A DNA stretch of 62,669 bases, the filler included, from an uncultured bacterium (lineage in GTDB: Bacteria; Hinthialibacterota; Hinthialibacteria; Hinthialibacterales; Hinthialibacteraceae), in NCBI GenBank assembly GCA_964449065.1. It is 16 parts of 16 records of this genome, joined end to end, with 100 filler letters (N's around TTAATTAATTAA, not from the genome) between each part and the next. Parts side by side here need not be neighbours in the genome. Positions count along the whole stretch, not along the records: positions 23,984 to 27,830 come from CAYVAZ010000425.1; 15 more parts are not named here. The stretch is one strand, 5' to 3'. Positions 12,479 through 27,830 of this stretch are shown in pieces; position 1 is the stretch's first letter; each line of letters starts with the position of its first letter. The notes below the pieces were generated by a model that was not told the origin of the DNA, made no database searches, and saw nothing but the letters and a program-made list of their open reading frames with translations. Both the position numbers and the translations under genes were made by a program.

Positions 12479-13828
12479 TTATCCCTTAATAATCCCCAAT
12501 ATCTCGTCGGTCTTTTGCTTCAACAAATTCTGATTCCCACGCGATTCAATATTTAACCGCAAAATCGGTTCCGTATTCGATTTGCGCAAATTAAACCGCC
12601 AGTCCGGAAACTCAAAACTCACCCCATCCGTATGATCCACCACCGGATTGAAACGCGCGTAGTGTTTGGATATCCGCTCCATCATCTCATCCGCGTTATC
12701 CACGGTGTTGTTGATTTCCCCGCTAATCGGATACTTCTGAATCCGCTCTTTCACCAACTCCGACATCGAACGGCCGGTCGTGCCTAAAATTTCCTGCATC
12801 ATCAAAAACGGTATCATCCCGCTGTCGCAATACGAAAATTCTTTAAAATACAAATGACACGACATTTCCCCGCCAAATTGCGCGTCCTCTTCCCGCATTT
12901 TCTCCTTGATAAACGAATGCCCCGAACAGCACAGGACCGGAACGCCGCCGCTGTTTTCAACCATCTCGATCGTGTTCCATGTCAATCGTGGGTCGTGAAC
13001 AATTTTTGATCCGGGATTCTTTTTCAAAATCGTCTCCGCCAAAAAGCCGACAATGTAATAACCCTCAATATAATTTCCATACTCATCAAAAAAGAAACAG
13101 CGGTCATAATCGCCATCCCACGCGACTCCCAGCGCGGCCCGGTGCGTTTGAATCGCCTCAATCGTCGAAGCACGGTTTATCTCCAACATCGGGTTCGGCA
13201 CCCCGTTCGGAAAGGTCGAATCCGGCTCAAAATTCACCCGAACCATCTCAATCGGCAATCGGGATTCCAACTTCTCCAACACCGGCCCGGCACACCCGTT
13301 CCCCGGATTCACCACCACCTTCATCGGCTTTAAATTTTCTGTATTGATAAACGTTAACAAATGAGAAATATAGTCATCCATCACATTCACATTGACCGCG
13401 TTTCCTGTGGAAGCCGCCGGTGAAAACCGGTTCTCTATCACCATCCGCTCCATCTCCTTTAAACCACTGTTGGAACCAATCGGCTTGGCTTCTTCCCGCA
13501 CACATTTCATGCCATTGTATTCCGGCGGATTGTGGCTCGCCGTGATCATAATGCCGCCATCCGCTTCCAAATGATTCACAGAAAAATACACCATCTCCGT
13601 CCCGCACAACCCGATGGAATACACCTCCGCCCCCGAATCGGTGATCCCTTTCATGATCGCGTCACACAACTCCAAACTGGATTCACGAACGTCATATCCA
13701 ACCACCACTTTTTTTGCCCCCAACAACTGCACCATCGCGCGTGCACTGCGGTAAGCGATATCCGTATTCAAATCCTCAGGAACTCTCCCGCGAATATCAT
13801 ACGCTTTATAACAGGAAAGACTTTTCAT
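12479..13828 (-). CDS. Phosphomannomutase/phosphoglucomutase
   Basis: AYDIRG, TASHNP, DGDYDR, GEMS, RKSNTEP motifs. Confidence 0.95.
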   Translation of the reverse strand: MKSLSCYKAYDIRGRVPEDLNTDIAYRSARAMVQLLGAKKVVVGYDVRESSLELCDAIMKGITDSGAEVYSIGLCGTEMVYFSVNHLEADGGIMITASHNPPEYNGMKCVREEAKPIGSNSGLKEMERMVIENRFSPAASTGNAVNVNVMDDYISHLLTFINTENLKPMKVVVNPGNGCAGPVLEKLESRLPIEMVRVNFEPDSTFPNGVPNPMLEINRASTIEAIQTHRAALGVAWDGDYDRCFFFDEYGNYIEGYYIVGFLAETILKKNPGSKIVHDPRLTWNTIEMVENSGGVPVLCCSGHSFIKEKMREEDAQFGGEMSCHLYFKEFSYCDSGMIPFLMMQEILGTTGRSMSELVKERIQKYPISGEINNTVDNADEMMERISKHYARFNPVVDHTDGVSFEFPDWRFNLRKSNTEPILRLNIESRGNQNLLKQKTDEILGIIKG

Positions 13829-14018
13829 TCCGTTTCATCCTCTAGGTTCAGATTTTCCACTCACCTCACTTTAAAGGAATTCAAAAATTGGTCAACAAGA
13901 ACAAATACGTCAAAATGGCTCTCTACGCATTCTTCTTCCAAAATACCGAGCCAAACAGGCACACACTTTCCCATAAACCATATTTATATAACATGCTCAT
14001 ATTACTGGATATATATAA

Positions 14019-14035
14019 TTGGCACACTAATTGAT
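14019..14035 (+). promoter_or_regulatory. Putative sigma54 (-24/-12) promoter of the Hsp20 cluster
   Basis: TTGGCACACTAATTGAT (GG-N10-GA) about 60 bp upstream of the start, after an AT-rich tract. Confidence 0.45.
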
Positions 14036-14095
14036 TATTGCAGAAATAGAATTTATGGCACAAACATAAAACCAATAGGTTTAAGGAGGATGACC

Positions 14096-14539
14096 ATGAT
14101 TACATGGACCCCGGTAAACGAAATGGATGCTTTACGCAACGAAATCAACAGTATCTTCAACACCTTCTATACCCCCAACCGGTGGGATAGAAGAAAAGGC
14201 CGCTACTCCAGCGAGTACCCGAAAGTGAACATCTACGAAGATAAAGATCATTACTTTATCGAAGCCGTCGTTCCCGGTATGGATACCGAAAAGTTCGATC
14301 TATCCGTTCATGACCAAGTCGTTTCCATTAGCGGCGAAAAAGCCCACGCTGAACCCGCAGAAGGCGAATCACTCCTGCGCGGCGAACGCGCCTACGGCAA
14401 ATTCGCGCGCACCGTGGAATTGCCCAATAAAATTAATGCCGACAACGCCGAAGCCCAGTACCGCCATGGAATCCTCTACATTACGGTTCCCAAAGCGGAA
14501 GAAGCCAAGCCGAAAAAAATCGAAGTCAAAGTTTCGTAA
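14096..14539 (+). CDS. Hsp20/alpha-crystallin small heat-shock protein
   Basis: YPKVNIYE, ER-YGKF-R, AQYRHGIL, PKKIEV; AAGGAGG RBS at 14083 sets the start (ORF-track start 13532 is a spurious extension). Confidence 0.92.
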   Translation: MITWTPVNEMDALRNEINSIFNTFYTPNRWDRRKGRYSSEYPKVNIYEDKDHYFIEAVVPGMDTEKFDLSVHDQVVSISGEKAHAEPAEGESLLRGERAYGKFARTVELPNKINADNAEAQYRHGILYITVPKAEEAKPKKIEVKVS

Positions 14540-14572
14540 CCAAAACATTCACAATCTTTGGAGGTCATGAAA

Positions 14573-14962
14573 ATGGTACAAACTCAAGTTCCAGCAACCC
14601 ATACACAACAAGGCCTTACGCAGGAAACCAATAATTTCCAAACCGTCATTCCACCGGTCGATATCTTCGAAAGCAATGATAACGTCATTCTCATCGCCGA
14701 TATCCCCGGTATCGAACGCGATCATTTGGATATCAACGTCGAAAACAATGTGTTAACACTCTATGCCACCACACAAGAACGCAAACCGGCTGACCAAGTC
14801 TACCGCGAATTCCGCCCCGTCCACTTCTACCGTCAGTTCTCGCTCTCGGAACGGGTCAACGCGGAACACATCTCAGCCGAACTCAAAAACGGTGTGGTTC
14901 GCATTACACTCCCAAAACAAGAAGATGCAAAACCAAAACGCATTGAAGTCAAAACGCAGTAA
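14573..14962 (+). CDS. Hsp20 family protein
   Basis: PPVDIFE, ADIPG, AELKNGV, PKRIEV; GGAGG RBS at 14560. Confidence 0.92.
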   Translation: MVQTQVPATHTQQGLTQETNNFQTVIPPVDIFESNDNVILIADIPGIERDHLDINVENNVLTLYATTQERKPADQVYREFRPVHFYRQFSLSERVNAEHISAELKNGVVRITLPKQEDAKPKRIEVKTQ

Positions 14963-15177
14963 CACAAAAAAATACGGTTCCTTCAATCGTTTCAATTCAA
15001 TCAGAATCGATCCACCAGTCCTCCCCCAATACAATGGGGGAGGTTAGGTGGGAGGGAATTGAAGAAAGCATTCAACACGAAGATTCTTTTTTGATGGAAC
15101 GCAAAATATTACCGTAACAGACCATTGAGGTTCAAGAAATCGCATCCATAAGAATTTCTTGAGAAAGGAGACGCATC

Positions 15178-15639
15178 ATGAACCTGATACCAAAACCAAG
15201 ACAAGATATGTTTTCGGACTTACACCGTGAAATTGACTCCATCTTTTCACGCTTTACCCCGAATTTGTTGAACCAGGAATTTGGAACGTTCGCGGGTGAA
15301 TCCCTCATCGAATTCACCCCGGTAGTCGATATAAATGAATCAGATGACGCCGTACATGTTCGTGCCGAATTGCCCGGATTGGAAAAAGATCAAATCTCGA
15401 TCGATGTGAGCGGACAAACCCTAACCCTCTCCGGTGAAAAGAAACACGAAGAAGAAAAGAAAGAAGGGGGATACTACAGCCGTGAACGTTCTTTCGGCCA
15501 TTTCAGCCGCCAAATCACACTCCCGGCTGAAGTCGATATGGACAAAACGACAGCCGATTACAAAAACGGCGTGCTGCACATCAATCTGCCAAAAACCGCA
15601 AGCGCGGCCCGCAAAAAAATCAAAGTCAAAGTAAACTAA
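15178..15639 (+). CDS. Hsp20 family protein
   Basis: PVVDINE, AELPG, ERSFGHF, ADYKNGVL; AAGGAG RBS. Confidence 0.93.
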   Translation: MNLIPKPRQDMFSDLHREIDSIFSRFTPNLLNQEFGTFAGESLIEFTPVVDINESDDAVHVRAELPGLEKDQISIDVSGQTLTLSGEKKHEEEKKEGGYYSRERSFGHFSRQITLPAEVDMDKTTADYKNGVLHINLPKTASAARKKIKVKVN

Positions 15640-23983: not shown

Positions 23984-24080
23984 AACCTACTAAACCAATT
24001 CGAATTTTATATTCATTATCACCACAAGAAGTAAAAATAATTATAAATACTATAAATATTAACTTTCTCATTTTTTTCAT
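23984..24080 (-). CDS. Lipoprotein, probably solute-binding; N-terminal fragment only (not in ORF track)
   Basis: MKKMRKLIFIVFIIIFTSCGDNEYKIRIGLVG: lipobox FTS-C, IRIGLVG resembles type-1 periplasmic binding proteins. Confidence 0.65.
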
Positions 24081-24084
24081 AACG

Positions 24085-24139
24085 AAAAAGCACCCTTCAA
24101 ATTTAGTATAGTAAATTATAGTATGAAGGATGCTTTTTT
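24085..24139 (-). terminator. Long hairpin/terminator downstream of the peptide gene
   Basis: AAAAAGCACCCTTCA ... TGAAGGATGCTTTTT inverted repeat with A/T tails. Confidence 0.65.
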
Positions 24140-24158
24140 GTTAGTAGTAAGACTTTTT

Positions 24159-24227
24159 CTATTCTACAAAATACGGGCAACCTGCCGTGGTGCTGTCGGT
24201 TTGTGGTTTGACAACTTTAACTTTCAT
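24159..24227 (-). CDS. Putative RiPP precursor peptide MKVKVVKPQTDSTTAGCPYFVE (22 aa, geopeptide-like)
   Basis: GGAGGTG RBS (24234-24240) 6 nt before ATG; 51 bp downstream of the rSAM/SPASM stop; followed by a hairpin. Confidence 0.75.
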   Translation of the reverse strand: MKVKVVKPQTDSTTAGCPYFVE

Positions 24228-24278
24228 TGGATACACCTCCCTTCTTCAAATTGGATTTTTTATGTATGTCAACGATTG

Positions 24279-25589
24279 CTATTGGCTAGCAACGGCATGC
24301 ATAAACGGTTTTAAGGTGGTATCGAAATACGGCATTTCACAGGATTCGGCTTGGTCGTCTCCGGTTTCCATATAGGCGGCGTGGCGGCAGCCGCTGGCGC
24401 AGATCGGCATGTAATGGCACGCTTTGCATTTGGCGTTCAAATCAAGATTACGGTACGATTTTTCCGGGTCGATAATCCCGTCGCGTACATGGCCGACCTT
24501 GAAGTCATAACGGCCGACAAACCCGGGGCACTTAAAGATGTTCCCCAGCGGATCCACGACATAGCTGTGGTACATCAATGCCTGGCAGGGGCCTAATGCC
24601 ATCCGGTCTTTTACGTTAAAGCCTTTTTCCATCGCGTATTCGGTCAGAGTGACAATATCCCGGCACTCGGTTTCCGACATCTTGCAAACGGTGCACTGTT
24701 GGGAAATAGCCGAAGCGATCTTATCGCCGATGGTGGAGAGAATCGGCTTGGCGTAAAAGGTTTCTAATTTTTCATGCAGTCCCAAATCATGCAGGTAATC
24801 AATGAGCGTGGTTACGCTATGGTAATTCTCTTGGTTAAAGTTGGTGCCGACTGTCACTTTCAGATGATCGGCGGCATAGAGAATATTGGTGATGATCTTA
24901 TCGAAGGTCCCCTTGCCGCCCAGCGTCGGCCGCTTGGCATCGTGCTCATCACCATAGCCGTCCAGCGTAATCTTCACGGATTCGATGCCGTGCTCTTTTA
25001 ACGCGTGCACCGTTTCTTGATCCATCAACACCCCGTTGGATATCATCCGCAGGGTTTTTCTTAGTTGATACCGTTCTGCCAGCAGGCAGATTTCATCGCA
25101 AAGGTGATACAGTTCTTTTTTGTTGAGTAAGGGTTCGCCACCGTAAAAGGTGATACGCAGTTCCTTGGATTGATCTTCTTGAATGAGTCCTTCCACCCAA
25201 CTAATAATTGAATTGGACGTGTCGCGTTTCAAAAAGATGCGGTTTTTTACGCCATTTTCAACACAGTATGGGCAGGCTAAATTACAGGAATAGGTTGTAA
25301 GAATCGTAAGATCAATTATGTCTTTATTTGTTCTTACATTTTTGTACCACTGATACCCTTTGTCGTCATCGTTTTCATTTTCTTCAACCAATACCCCCAT
25401 TTCCTGCAATTGATCCATGGCTTCCTGAAGCTCTTCATTGCTTTCTGATAATCCAGCATCCGAATCTAATAATTCAATAAAATTTGATTCCAATTCAACA
25501 ATAGATCGATTAATTGTGTTATAGATTAGTACGGTGTCATTGCCGTTATCTGATGGAATTGAATATTTGGAAAGACGTAATTTTTTCAT
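24279..25589 (-). CDS. Radical SAM/SPASM peptide maturase with N-terminal RRE-like region
   Basis: CNLACPYC, FYGGEPLL, ITLDG; SPASM CQA..VDPLGNIFKC...CKAC..MPICASGC...C. Confidence 0.9.
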   Translation of the reverse strand: MKKLRLSKYSIPSDNGNDTVLIYNTINRSIVELESNFIELLDSDAGLSESNEELQEAMDQLQEMGVLVEENENDDDKGYQWYKNVRTNKDIIDLTILTTYSCNLACPYCVENGVKNRIFLKRDTSNSIISWVEGLIQEDQSKELRITFYGGEPLLNKKELYHLCDEICLLAERYQLRKTLRMISNGVLMDQETVHALKEHGIESVKITLDGYGDEHDAKRPTLGGKGTFDKIITNILYAADHLKVTVGTNFNQENYHSVTTLIDYLHDLGLHEKLETFYAKPILSTIGDKIASAISQQCTVCKMSETECRDIVTLTEYAMEKGFNVKDRMALGPCQALMYHSYVVDPLGNIFKCPGFVGRYDFKVGHVRDGIIDPEKSYRNLDLNAKCKACHYMPICASGCRHAAYMETGDDQAESCEMPYFDTTLKPFMHAVASQ

Positions 25590-25625
25590 GTATATATCCT
25601 GTATTTTGATGTTGCTATCTTTATA

Positions 25626-25642
25626 TACAAATACAGTGCCAA
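25626..25642 (-). promoter_or_regulatory. Sigma54 promoter of the rSAM-peptide operon
   Basis: TTGGCACTGTATTTGTA (GG-N10-GT) 36 bp upstream of the ATG. Confidence 0.65.
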
Positions 25643-25790
25643 TAGTTACACTAATTTATAAGTTATATAATCTCAGATAGATATAACATATTTTGCAATA
25701 TATTCTTATTTGGAAAATTGATGCGGAAGCGGGCAGTAAATTGAGGGGAAATTGAGAATTAAGTAAGAATAGCAGTGCAATTGTTGCAAC

Positions 25791-25823
25791 TGCCCACTTT
25801 CGGTCACTGCCCATTAGTGGGCA
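25791..25823. promoter_or_regulatory. Tandem 16-bp enhancer-like palindromes
   Basis: TGCCCACTTTCGGTCA and TGCCCATTAGTGGGCA, 17-bp period, about 150-180 bp upstream of the sigma54 site. Confidence 0.55.
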
Positions 25824-25866
25824 ATGGATAAGATGAGTTTTCCGGCGGAATGACTAAGATGTTGAA

Positions 25867-27228
25867 CTAATCATTTAAATTGTATTTGTTCATACGCCGT
25901 TGCAGGGAAGTACGCGAAATCCCCAAGAGTTTCGCTGCCTTGGTTTGATTCCAATTGGTATCGGTTAAGCTTTGTTGGATGATATCGTGTTCCACCTGCT
26001 CCAGGGAGGAAATCAGGTTGTTGGACGAGAGTAAATTGTTGTATATCGATACGGTGGGAAACTGGATGTTCAACGGCAAATGAGCGGCAACAATGGTTTT
26101 CGTATCACCATACAAAATGCAGATTTGTTCGATAATATTCTTTAATTCGCGGATATTACCCGGCCACGAATAATCCATAAAAAGCTCCAAAGCCTTTTCC
26201 GAAACGTCTTCGATTTTTGACCCAAAGCGTTTCGAACACTCTTGCAAAAAAAACCGTACCATCGGCACGATATCCTCCGTCCGCTCCCGCAGCGGCGGCA
26301 AATAAATCGGAAACCGGTTGAGACGGTAAAATAAATCTTCTTTAAATTTCCCCTGATCCACCAGCCGTTTTAAGTTTTTATTGGTGGCCGCTAAAATACG
26401 CACATCCACCTGAATCGGCCGCTCCCCTCCAATCCGGTAAAACTCGCGTGTTTCCAACACCCGCAGCAGCGCGGATTGCAATTCATCGCTGATATTTCCG
26501 ATCTCATCCAAAAACAAGATGCCGCCATCCGCCAGTTCAAATTTGCCCCGCCGGCGTGAGACCGCGCTGGTAAACGATCCCTTTTCGTGTCCGAATAACT
26601 CGCTGGTCAGCAATTCTTGTGAGATGGAACCGCAATCCACTGTGATAAAAGGCGATTGGTTGTTCAGCCGCAATTCGCGGATCGAGTTGGCGATTAATTC
26701 TTTTCCCGTTCCGGTTTCCCCATAGATCAGCACATCCACATCATGCTTGGCGGCTTTTTCCACCTTTTCCATCACTCTCTTGAACTGCTCGCTTTTCCAG
26801 ATCAAGTTCTTATTGCCGGAAATGCGGTGCAGATTTTCTTCCAGAGAAGCCACTCGATTATTTAATTTCTTGAATTGCAGTGACCGTTTCACGGTTTCAA
26901 TCAGTTCATCCGGATCAATCGGTTTTACACAATAATCGTGCGCTCCTTCCTTCATGGCCTGCACCGCGGTGGCCGCTTCATTCAATGCCGTATACATAAT
27001 CACGATCATATCCTGATCGATCTCGCGGATCTTCATCAGCGTTTCAATCCCGTCCATTTCCGGCATCATCACATCCAAAATCACGACATCGATAATTTCT
27101 TGCTCTATTATATTAATCGCTTGGGTGGGGACCGTACTGGTAAACGTACGGAAATGATGGCGTAATACCGCGTTAAGACCGCGAACGGTTGATTCTTCGT
27201 CATCTACTATTAACACACCTGGCAGCAT
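25867..27228 (-). CDS. NtrC-family sigma54-dependent response regulator
   Basis: REC (VDDE, LDVMMP, KP), GETGTGKE, GSFTSA (GAFTGA variant), FLDEI, DLFYRL, WPGNIREL, Fis HTH. Confidence 0.95.
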   Translation of the reverse strand: MLPGVLIVDDEESTVRGLNAVLRHHFRTFTSTVPTQAINIIEQEIIDVVILDVMMPEMDGIETLMKIREIDQDMIVIMYTALNEAATAVQAMKEGAHDYCVKPIDPDELIETVKRSLQFKKLNNRVASLEENLHRISGNKNLIWKSEQFKRVMEKVEKAAKHDVDVLIYGETGTGKELIANSIRELRLNNQSPFITVDCGSISQELLTSELFGHEKGSFTSAVSRRRGKFELADGGILFLDEIGNISDELQSALLRVLETREFYRIGGERPIQVDVRILAATNKNLKRLVDQGKFKEDLFYRLNRFPIYLPPLRERTEDIVPMVRFFLQECSKRFGSKIEDVSEKALELFMDYSWPGNIRELKNIIEQICILYGDTKTIVAAHLPLNIQFPTVSIYNNLLSSNNLISSLEQVEHDIIQQSLTDTNWNQTKAAKLLGISRTSLQRRMNKYNLND

Positions 27229-27677
27229 TTTATTGTCAACCTATTATTTTTTCTAAATTTGCAATAGAGATATCCCTAGAACTCTTACTTTTATAGTAGT
27301 AAAAAAATGTTAAAATATCAAATGGTTGATACAATATAAATAAATTATTTGGAGTAAAGTCTAAATTCTATCCACTATTTTTTAACGATTTAAAATGACT
27401 GAAAGATTATTGTTTTTTTTAAAGTTCATTTCTATCAACGTCTAAGGTTAAAATTTTGTTTTGGAAATTCAATGTACAAATTATTGGGAACATCCCGCGT
27501 TTGTGATGAAATCCTTTCAGTAAACTTATCACCCATTATCGTTACATTTTTACACAAAGATCATGAATGAAGATTTCCGTTCTGTCTACTGGAATCGTTC
27601 AAAAAATATAAGCATAATATATTCAATCCGTTATGAGAAATAATGTATTGGTATATGGCTTGCAGGTTATTTACAAA

Positions 27678-27830
27678 CTGATGTTACGCAATCCATGATT
27701 GACGATTGCTTGAAAAATGGTTTTTGTTGTGAGCCAACTATTCTAAGTCAAACGCAGTGTCTATCGTCTTCTCCTTTTGGGAGAAGATAAGAGATGAGGG
27801 CGAAGAGAGCGATTGCTCCCCATGACGCAG
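27678..27830. mobile_element. MITE-A partial (about 280 bp; TIR CTSATGTTACGCA); also 39478-39600, 39715-39752, 43446-43497, 55185-55241, 58702-58890, 62496-62669
   Basis: Near-identical copies in both orientations at contig ends; overlapping halves reconstruct both TIRs. Confidence 0.8.

Follow-up and report, generated by a model that had tools for sequence, protein, structure and literature searches.

A single-cysteine precursor peptide beside a radical SAM/SPASM maturase in an uncultured Hinthialibacterota bacterium: a possible ring-forming, self-sensed signal

The described enzymes that most resemble the system reported here are the ranthipeptide synthases CteB and Tte1186, which act on SCIFF peptides, and PapB (freyrasin). 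In vitro, CteB and Tte1186 are described as linking Cys32 to Thr37, five residues apart, and one study in E. coli obtained from CteB a Cys32–Thr34 bond, not one at +5 (PMC8172795, PMC8326336). PapB is reported to abstract a hydrogen from the carbon adjacent to a carboxylate, for which the C-terminal one can serve; among the C-terminal residues covered in that account, Gly and D- or β-residues were accepted, and neither L-Ala, Lys or Phe nor Asn, Ile or Gln was processed (PMC12373016). A His/Arg pair has been modelled as the carboxylate site of PapB (PMC10739248), the seven-Cys scheme of SPASM ligands in CteB and PapB is laid out in PMC10177961, and the auxiliary clusters of SuiB, PqqE and anSME are given as fully ligated (PMC8326336). 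The chemistry of SbtM is described in section 5 of PMC9204691. On the side of signalling, agr-type quorum sensing by means of cyclic peptides has been described in Gram-positive bacteria, with autoinducing peptide (AIP) rings made of a Cys and four or five mostly hydrophobic residues, the staphylococcal rings having five residues (PMC12312760). The geopeptide type (TIGR04229/TIGR04280, a “hypothetical equivalog”) is a RiPP system that is catalogued but uncharacterised, and the single-Cys system treated in this work is related to it. Literature searches, with most subscription journals outside their reach, found nothing on geopeptide, TIGR04280/TIGR04229/TIGR04279 or FlmE/OhkG, and no publication on a single-Cys radical-SAM signal circuit.

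The window, that is, the whole stretch of 62,669 nucleotides that was analysed, is made of unrelated contigs of ~3.9 kb each, with N runs and a TTAATTAATTAA spacer between them, and adjacency across a gap is uninformative. The locus lies on contig C425 (positions 23984–27830), which has only 3,847 bases, so that genes beyond the N gaps are not its neighbours. The genome assembly is 87%-complete, and none of the 60 relatives drawn belongs to the same genus. The genes and signals of the contig share one orientation, on the minus strand: a 453-aa NtrC-type sigma-54 response regulator with receiver, AAA+ and Fis HTH domains (25867–27228), a sigma-54-type −24/−12 promoter site, TGGCAC-N5-TTGT (25627–25641, ~50 nt before the maturase), a radical SAM/SPASM maturase of 436 aa whose N-terminus carries an RRE-like domain (24279–25589), a 22-aa precursor peptide gene (24159–24227), a stable hairpin followed by a U-rich run (24080–24143), and the first 32 codons of a lipoprotein truncated at the contig end (23984–24080).

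The precursor ORF, MKVKVVKPQTDSTTAGCPYFVE followed by a stop codon, reads from 24227 to 24159. It begins with a β-strand-like leader, MKVKVVK, contains a single Cys at position 17, and its core, CPYFVE, ends at Cys+5. A ribosome-binding site, GGAGGTG, is located at 24240–24234, 6 nt ahead of the ATG, and the gene starts 51 nt past the maturase stop, which ends at 24279. An alternative listing of 25 residues starts at a GTG within the ribosome site, which makes the 22-aa form the likely one. The hairpin has a folding energy of −22.9 kcal/mol (z = −3.85), equalled by none of 200 shuffles; a terminator scan did not flag it, and it may act as a partial terminator or as an mRNA stabiliser. The initial annotation had drawn attention to this unannotated ORF with its GGAGGTG site, to the 51 nt between it and the maturase and to the hairpin, all of which were found at the positions it gave, and the neighbouring enzyme, which it had called a radical SAM/SPASM protein, has both domains. 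A sigma-70-like site (10 of 12; 24144–24115, minus strand) overlaps the hairpin ahead of the binding-protein gene that the lipoprotein start represents (see below) and could drive that gene, in a transcript that would be without the 5′ arm of the hairpin; the scan returned six such sites when 5.6 were expected, and the site is therefore not relied on.

Scans of the peptide with NCBIfam and Pfam gave no match. A profile built from the other peptides of the survey, leaving this one out, put it at the head of the 167,490 six-frame segments taken from its genome (E 0.0018; next segment 0.2). The enzyme is present in 3 of 19 same-family genomes (55, 53 and 39% identity), each time followed by a 22–23-aa peptide, with the endings CPFYIA, CPFFVT or CTFVLQ. 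Related loci were drawn from genome and metagenome scans, and at 88 of 131, a set that takes in loci with the peptide upstream of the enzyme, a small ORF with leader, Cys and ribosome site was found downstream; the same search found 1/131 on the opposite strand and 4/615 in random windows. Since this first filter required a Cys, the loci were recounted with the group set by enzyme motifs alone. A leader-type ORF then lies downstream at 113 of 118 loci, and all 113 contain a Cys; the peptide is upstream at two loci, and none was found at the remaining three. The proposal of a RiPP precursor–maturase pair, for which similar peptides beside radical-SAM homologues had been named as the check, is borne out by these homologous peptides. 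The pair is almost certainly genuine, and the 22-codon gene is likely to encode the substrate of the neighbouring enzyme.

Some of the related loci have additional small genes. Tandem, near-identical precursor genes follow the maturase at L013 (three copies), L097, L113 and L114 (two copies). At L097, L020, L114, L021, L163 and L279, and also at L104, L099 and L030, a second small ORF that lacks Cys and has the core RPWLVD is placed between the enzyme and the Cys peptide, just past the maturase stop. Its register is that of CPWxxD, with Arg replacing Cys, and its leader is different; it might serve as decoy, inhibitor or second substrate.

Regarding family, TIGR04280 is the best model for the maturase and covers its full length, but the score is 265.1 bits against a cut-off of 400, a value that none of 40 related enzymes scanned reached. 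The peptide gave no match to TIGR04229 (cut-off 30 bits) at E up to 10, nor did a six-frame search of its genome at the peptide locus; among 40 peptides scanned, one upstream Cys-Cys peptide touched this model (16 bits). Other models score lower with the maturase (PapB, NF047865, 137 of 340 bits; SCIFF, TIGR03974, 90 of 425). Over-cut-off members of TIGR04280 were found in 21 of 301 genomes of one phylum and are 25–30% identical to our enzyme. An upstream peptide was recovered at 15 of these 21 loci, with CC in 14 and CKC in one; the Cys-Cys peptide upstream is a criterion derived here from these members and not a curator’s definition. In a FastTree tree of 76 enzymes, the over-cut-off members form their own clade within a group having upstream Cys-Cys peptides, a second group holds most downstream single-Cys systems, and our enzyme with its three orthologues makes up a third (99% local support), the branching order among the groups being unresolved. 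The resemblance to geopeptides suggested in the initial annotation therefore stands as far as the working of the system is concerned: the short peptide, the leader with a hydrophobic strand, the Cys near the end and the linker Cys302 are common to both. Membership does not stand, since both cut-offs are missed and the peptide type and gene order differ: geopeptide members have a Cys-Cys peptide upstream, whereas here a single Cys, a downstream gene and a fixed end at +5 are found. By sequence, then, the system is a sister single-Cys branch and not a member of the family. Three over-cut-off geopeptide maturases (L193, L194 and L197) carry a C-terminal extension of ~260–300 residues.

The peptides were surveyed at 124 single-Cys loci, one peptide being counted per locus, which gave 123 distinct peptides; L010 and eleven loci among L218–L278 had been dropped as duplicates, L200 and L211 as not of the single-Cys type, and L002/L003 because their enzymes are unrelated. 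The Cys is the sole invariant residue, and the residue that precedes it varies. The 46 short peptides stop at Cys+5 in 36 cases, at +6 in six and at +4 in four, and the 36 that stop at +5 do so with 12 different last residues, Gly among them. In the 77 long peptides, position +5 is Asp or Glu in 72. A carboxylate is therefore found at Cys+5 in 108 of 123 peptides, either as the C-terminus itself (36) or as an acidic side chain (72), and is absent from 15. Twelve enzyme clusters (45% identity) make short peptides, and nine of them show the stop at +5; the long peptides are kin and not independent, 75 of 77 tracing to one enzyme cluster, labelled mostly acidobacterial. Our peptide combines both features, Glu22 being at once position +5 and the last residue. 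The carboxylate rule has exceptions among long peptides at L038, L144, L150, L151 and L286, where +5 is Ala, Thr or a second Cys (CPWMIC...).

A fixed Cys, a varying core and a fixed carboxylate at +5 are most simply accounted for by a thioether to the carbon next to that carboxylate. On this pattern a Cys thioether is probably formed; closure of the ring at Cys+5 is a more tentative proposal, for which we would not claim even odds. The initial annotation had described a C-P-Y-F-x-E core and a crosslink through Cys or through Tyr/Phe. A conserved aromatic core does not hold, as aromatic residues occupy no invariant position and 28 of 123 peptides, such as CVILR, CRPAVF and CSPVVY, have none at Cys+1 to +4; of the two crosslinks, the part concerning Cys fits its invariance, and with only the Cys invariant a Tyr/Phe link is unlikely. 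A crosslink through Tyr19 or Phe20, whether an aromatic C–C or C–O bond or an S-aryl one, is accordingly very improbable, even though aromatic residues are frequent at +2 (62/123) and +3 (54/123), all six peptides ending at Cys+6 (L090, L091, L164, L205, L212 and L250) have Trp at +2, and auxiliary cluster I of the enzyme is possibly fully ligated, as is given as typical of C–C crosslinkers (PMC8326336).

The ring could also be closed one residue earlier, on Val21, in which case it would have five residues, like the rings of most AIPs, and the spacing of PapB, the +5 carboxylate being an anchor only. A residue is present at +4 in every peptide and the +5 residue is missing from four of 123; Val or Ile occupies +4 in 68 of 88 peptides, and five is the ring size given for staphylococcal AIPs (PMC12312760). 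We nevertheless consider this closure improbable, since it is at +5, not at +4, that the stop codon is fixed, and the carboxylate-guided thioether enzymes described in PMC12373016 attack the adjacent carbon. As a further variant, for this peptide alone, closure might take place on the C-γ of Glu22; a link to the Glu side chain cannot be general, as the orthologues end in Ala, Thr or Gln. In small numbers, the ends of the peptides vary together with their enzymes: four of the six enzymes of peptides ending at +6 have Arg rather than Lys at position 281, and two upstream CVILR peptides, which end at +4, pair with Arg at position 206.

The maturase contains the radical-SAM motif CxxxCxxC (C102/106/109), all seven CteB-type SPASM cysteines (335, 354, 388, 391, 397, 401 and 417) and an N-terminal fold that we take to be an RRE, a layout common to CteB, Tte1186 and PapB. 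Its nearest solved sequence is that of the thioether synthase CteB (E 5.5e-38; next 2.6e-23), to which the predicted model aligns across residues 7–435. The fold does not decide the chemistry, as CteB (Z 22.9), ChlB (22.2) and TigE (22.1) are tied at the top of the fold search and anSME (21.5) is close. Compared with CteB and PapB, the enzyme has an extra linker CxxC, C299/C302, and CPG replaces CHQ after the AuxI Cys: it reads FKCPG where CteB has YPCHQ, the His being Pro here, so that, if these positions are equivalent, it probably lacks the PapB-type His/Arg carboxylate pair. C299 is found in 102 and C302 in 104 of 114 single-Cys enzymes, and neither occurs in eight SCIFF-type enzymes; C302 is also present in 48 of 52 enzymes of the Cys-Cys branch. 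The three CteB-equivalent ligands of auxiliary cluster I are kept, with C299/C302 as a possible fourth in or next to a region, 285–301, where the model has pLDDT under 50; the pair could fill the iron site on this cluster that thioether synthases leave open. The enzyme also carries K206 and K281. At position 281, where a barrel strand of the model ends, all 114 of 114 single-Cys enzymes have Lys or Arg, against 3 of 52 from the Cys-Cys branch and 0 of 8 of the SCIFF type; geopeptide members have Asp, Ser or Ala there and the clades are separate. Position 206 is basic in both the single-Cys and the Cys-Cys branches.

The extra linker pair gives a place to another chemistry, in which the Cys itself would be oxidised through removal of hydrogen from its C-β, as by anSME and SbtM. 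The product would be a thioaldehyde, a formylglycine or a thio-oxazole, and the +5 carboxylate would be merely a ruler of register. As with SbtM and anSME, Cys is the only fixed residue of the substrate; with the conserved C302, auxiliary cluster I could be complete, no CteB-type His follows the second AuxI Cys, and anSME is the second-best PDB sequence match, with a fold that is similar. SbtM, however, acts in a Gly-Cys motif, and our peptides have no Gly-Cys/Sec motif; the second AuxI Cys of anSME has no counterpart in the alignment, our enzyme has an RRE, and it reaches 74 bits with the model for anaerobic sulfatase maturases, where TIGR04280 gives 265 and PapB 137. Cysteine oxidation is thus unlikely, and it ranks first of the alternative chemistries, ahead of the Val21 ring and, last, the aromatic link.

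For the preferred thioether at Cys+5, the following course is proposed. The RRE-like domain would bind the MKVKVVK strand of the leader, and a lysine at the mouth of the barrel, K281 together with K206, would hold the Cys+5 carboxylate, a role suggested for K281 by its co-occurrence with the single-Cys peptides and by its position where a barrel strand ends. The 5′-deoxyadenosyl radical would then take a hydrogen from the carbon adjacent to this carboxylate, that is, the C-α of the terminal residue in short peptides and the C-β of Asp in long ones. Attack by the Cys sulfur would leave the product 2 Da lighter, with a six-residue thioether ring (Cys17–Glu22). The spacing predicted here is that of CteB in vitro, and the guidance by a carboxylate is that of PapB, but SCIFF peptides have six Cys where ours has one, and the CX3D motif of PapB substrates, with its acid at +4, is missing, the acid being at +5. 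If this closure is right, the family does natively what PapB could not, and the enzyme is a natural C-terminal macrocyclase for L-residues; ring closure on natural L-residues would be useful in peptide stapling. The fixed carboxylate and K281 offer a sharp and cheap handle on the chemistry of the never-characterised geopeptide superfamily. Neither this carboxylate nor the context of sigma-54 activator, binding protein and kinase, to which we now turn, was contained in the initial annotation.

The sigma-54 response regulator is 61% identical to its counterpart at the orthologous locus L213. Promoter sites were searched with a −24/−12 consensus that we assume for sigma-54. The site of our contig is not significant by itself, 36 of 200 shuffles being as good, but sites with at most one mismatch occur upstream at 43 of 101 loci, compared with none in antisense and one inside the gene, and the site aligns across four same-family loci; RpoN is present in the genome. 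Two 17-nt copies of a GCCCA-N4-TGGGC-like palindrome (25789–25822, without strand) are candidate binding sites for the activator, and similar palindromes are found in two same-family loci. The cut lipoprotein matches the N-terminus of a family-5 solute-binding protein that follows a same-family peptide (14/30 identical, E 2e-6), and this orthologous protein finds its best PDB match in AppA, an oligopeptide binder (119 bits; next 79).

The downstream genes can be followed further at related loci, where neighbours were counted by tblastn. Downstream of the peptide at L213, a same-family locus, come a family-5 binding protein, a dCache-HAMP kinase and two further regulators; this pair of binding protein and kinase recurs at L216 and L217, which belong to other phyla, in one case together with a TonB-dependent receptor. 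A binding protein lies downstream at 100 of the 108 loci with 1.2 kb, and at the 45 loci with 3 kb both the binding protein and the kinase are always found. The sigma-54 regulator is upstream at 40 of these 45 long loci, and one locus has a LytTR regulator in its place. At 32 distant radical-SAM loci, the counts, obtained by a different method, were one, four and zero for binding protein, kinase and sigma-54 regulator, respectively. Several other recurring neighbour clusters were set aside, as they proved to be shadow ORFs antisense to GC-rich genes. In our own assembly, there is no orthologue of the remaining part of the binding protein, a different family-5 protein being present on contig C331, and no kinase matches the sensor domain of the cassette kinase. 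The sensing half of the circuit rests on the relatives, as the contig holds no more than 32 codons of our binding protein and a matching kinase is missing from the assembly.

The peptide is probably a self-made signal, as related clusters combine it with a binding protein and a sensor kinase as well as a sigma-54 switch, and the gene order suggests a feedback loop of making and sensing. The trimmed ring would probably be the autoinducing signal; in relatives, the order of the genes is consistent with its capture by the orphan family-5 binding protein, phosphorylation of the sigma-54 activator by the dCache kinase, and an increase of maturase and peptide transcription by the activator, a positive feedback loop like agr. 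We give the complete reading, with a leader-bound enzyme, a Cys17–Glu22 ring and the trimmed ring as autoinducing signal, a probability of roughly 40%; a self-sensing circuit, taken on its own and judged from gene content, is somewhat favoured over its absence.

The peptide might instead be an output, with a role within the cell or else as metal carrier or antimicrobial, and what the binding protein and kinase sense would be a different ligand, such as nutrient peptides or a metal complex. No ABC exporter was matched at the surveyed loci, none of the widely recurring neighbours is a peptidase, family-5 binders have nickel and other compounds among their ligands, and the TonB-dependent receptor is upstream at only 5 of 45 long loci. 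What makes an output rather unlikely is that the genes for synthesis and for sensing keep one fixed order across phyla, and that the core varies between lineages within a fixed frame, in the manner that the specificity groups of PMC12312760 suggest for signals.

The self-sensed ring would share with Agr a kinase and a regulator beside the peptide gene and, as predicted here, a ring of Cys and four to five hydrophobic residues; several of the surveyed cores resemble AIPs in the list of PMC12312760, CPWII and CVLVTL among these AIPs. It would differ in the enzyme, Agr having AgrB and a thiolactone where a radical-SAM enzyme and a thioether are predicted here, and in sensing, where the predicted route leads from a family-5 binding protein by way of a dCache-HAMP kinase to a sigma-54 activator. 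No AgrB was found on the contig or among recurring neighbours. A PF04647 search of five genomes gave one match, partial and at 24.1 bits (cut-off 23), which falls in a frame of 638 aa on a different contig of our own genome. SCIFF peptides are said to take part in clostridial quorum sensing. Were both the terminal thioether and the circuit to hold, this would be an undescribed and widespread peptide quorum sensing of Gram-negative-type bacteria, its single Cys stapled to the α-carbon of whichever L-residue is the last, a broad claim that we regard as doubtful. Its product would imitate the Agr thiolactone with a thioether that resists hydrolysis, and would be sensed by way of an orphan binding protein, a dCache kinase and a sigma-54 activator. 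Such a radical-SAM-made counterpart in Acidobacteriota, Nitrospirota and further poorly cultured phyla would give diderm bacteria an additional signalling chemistry.

Elsewhere in the window, inspection by eye revealed three consecutive ORFs that resemble small heat-shock (Hsp20-type) proteins (14558–15639, and a frame at 13532–14539). A GC-rich contig (20890–21165 and 21877–23458, minus strand) shows, also by eye, the start of an IS3-like transposase, a CinA-like ORF and another, of 363 aa, whose N-terminus is TIR-like; its composition is unlike that of the contig of the peptide, and it may therefore be mobile or misbinned.
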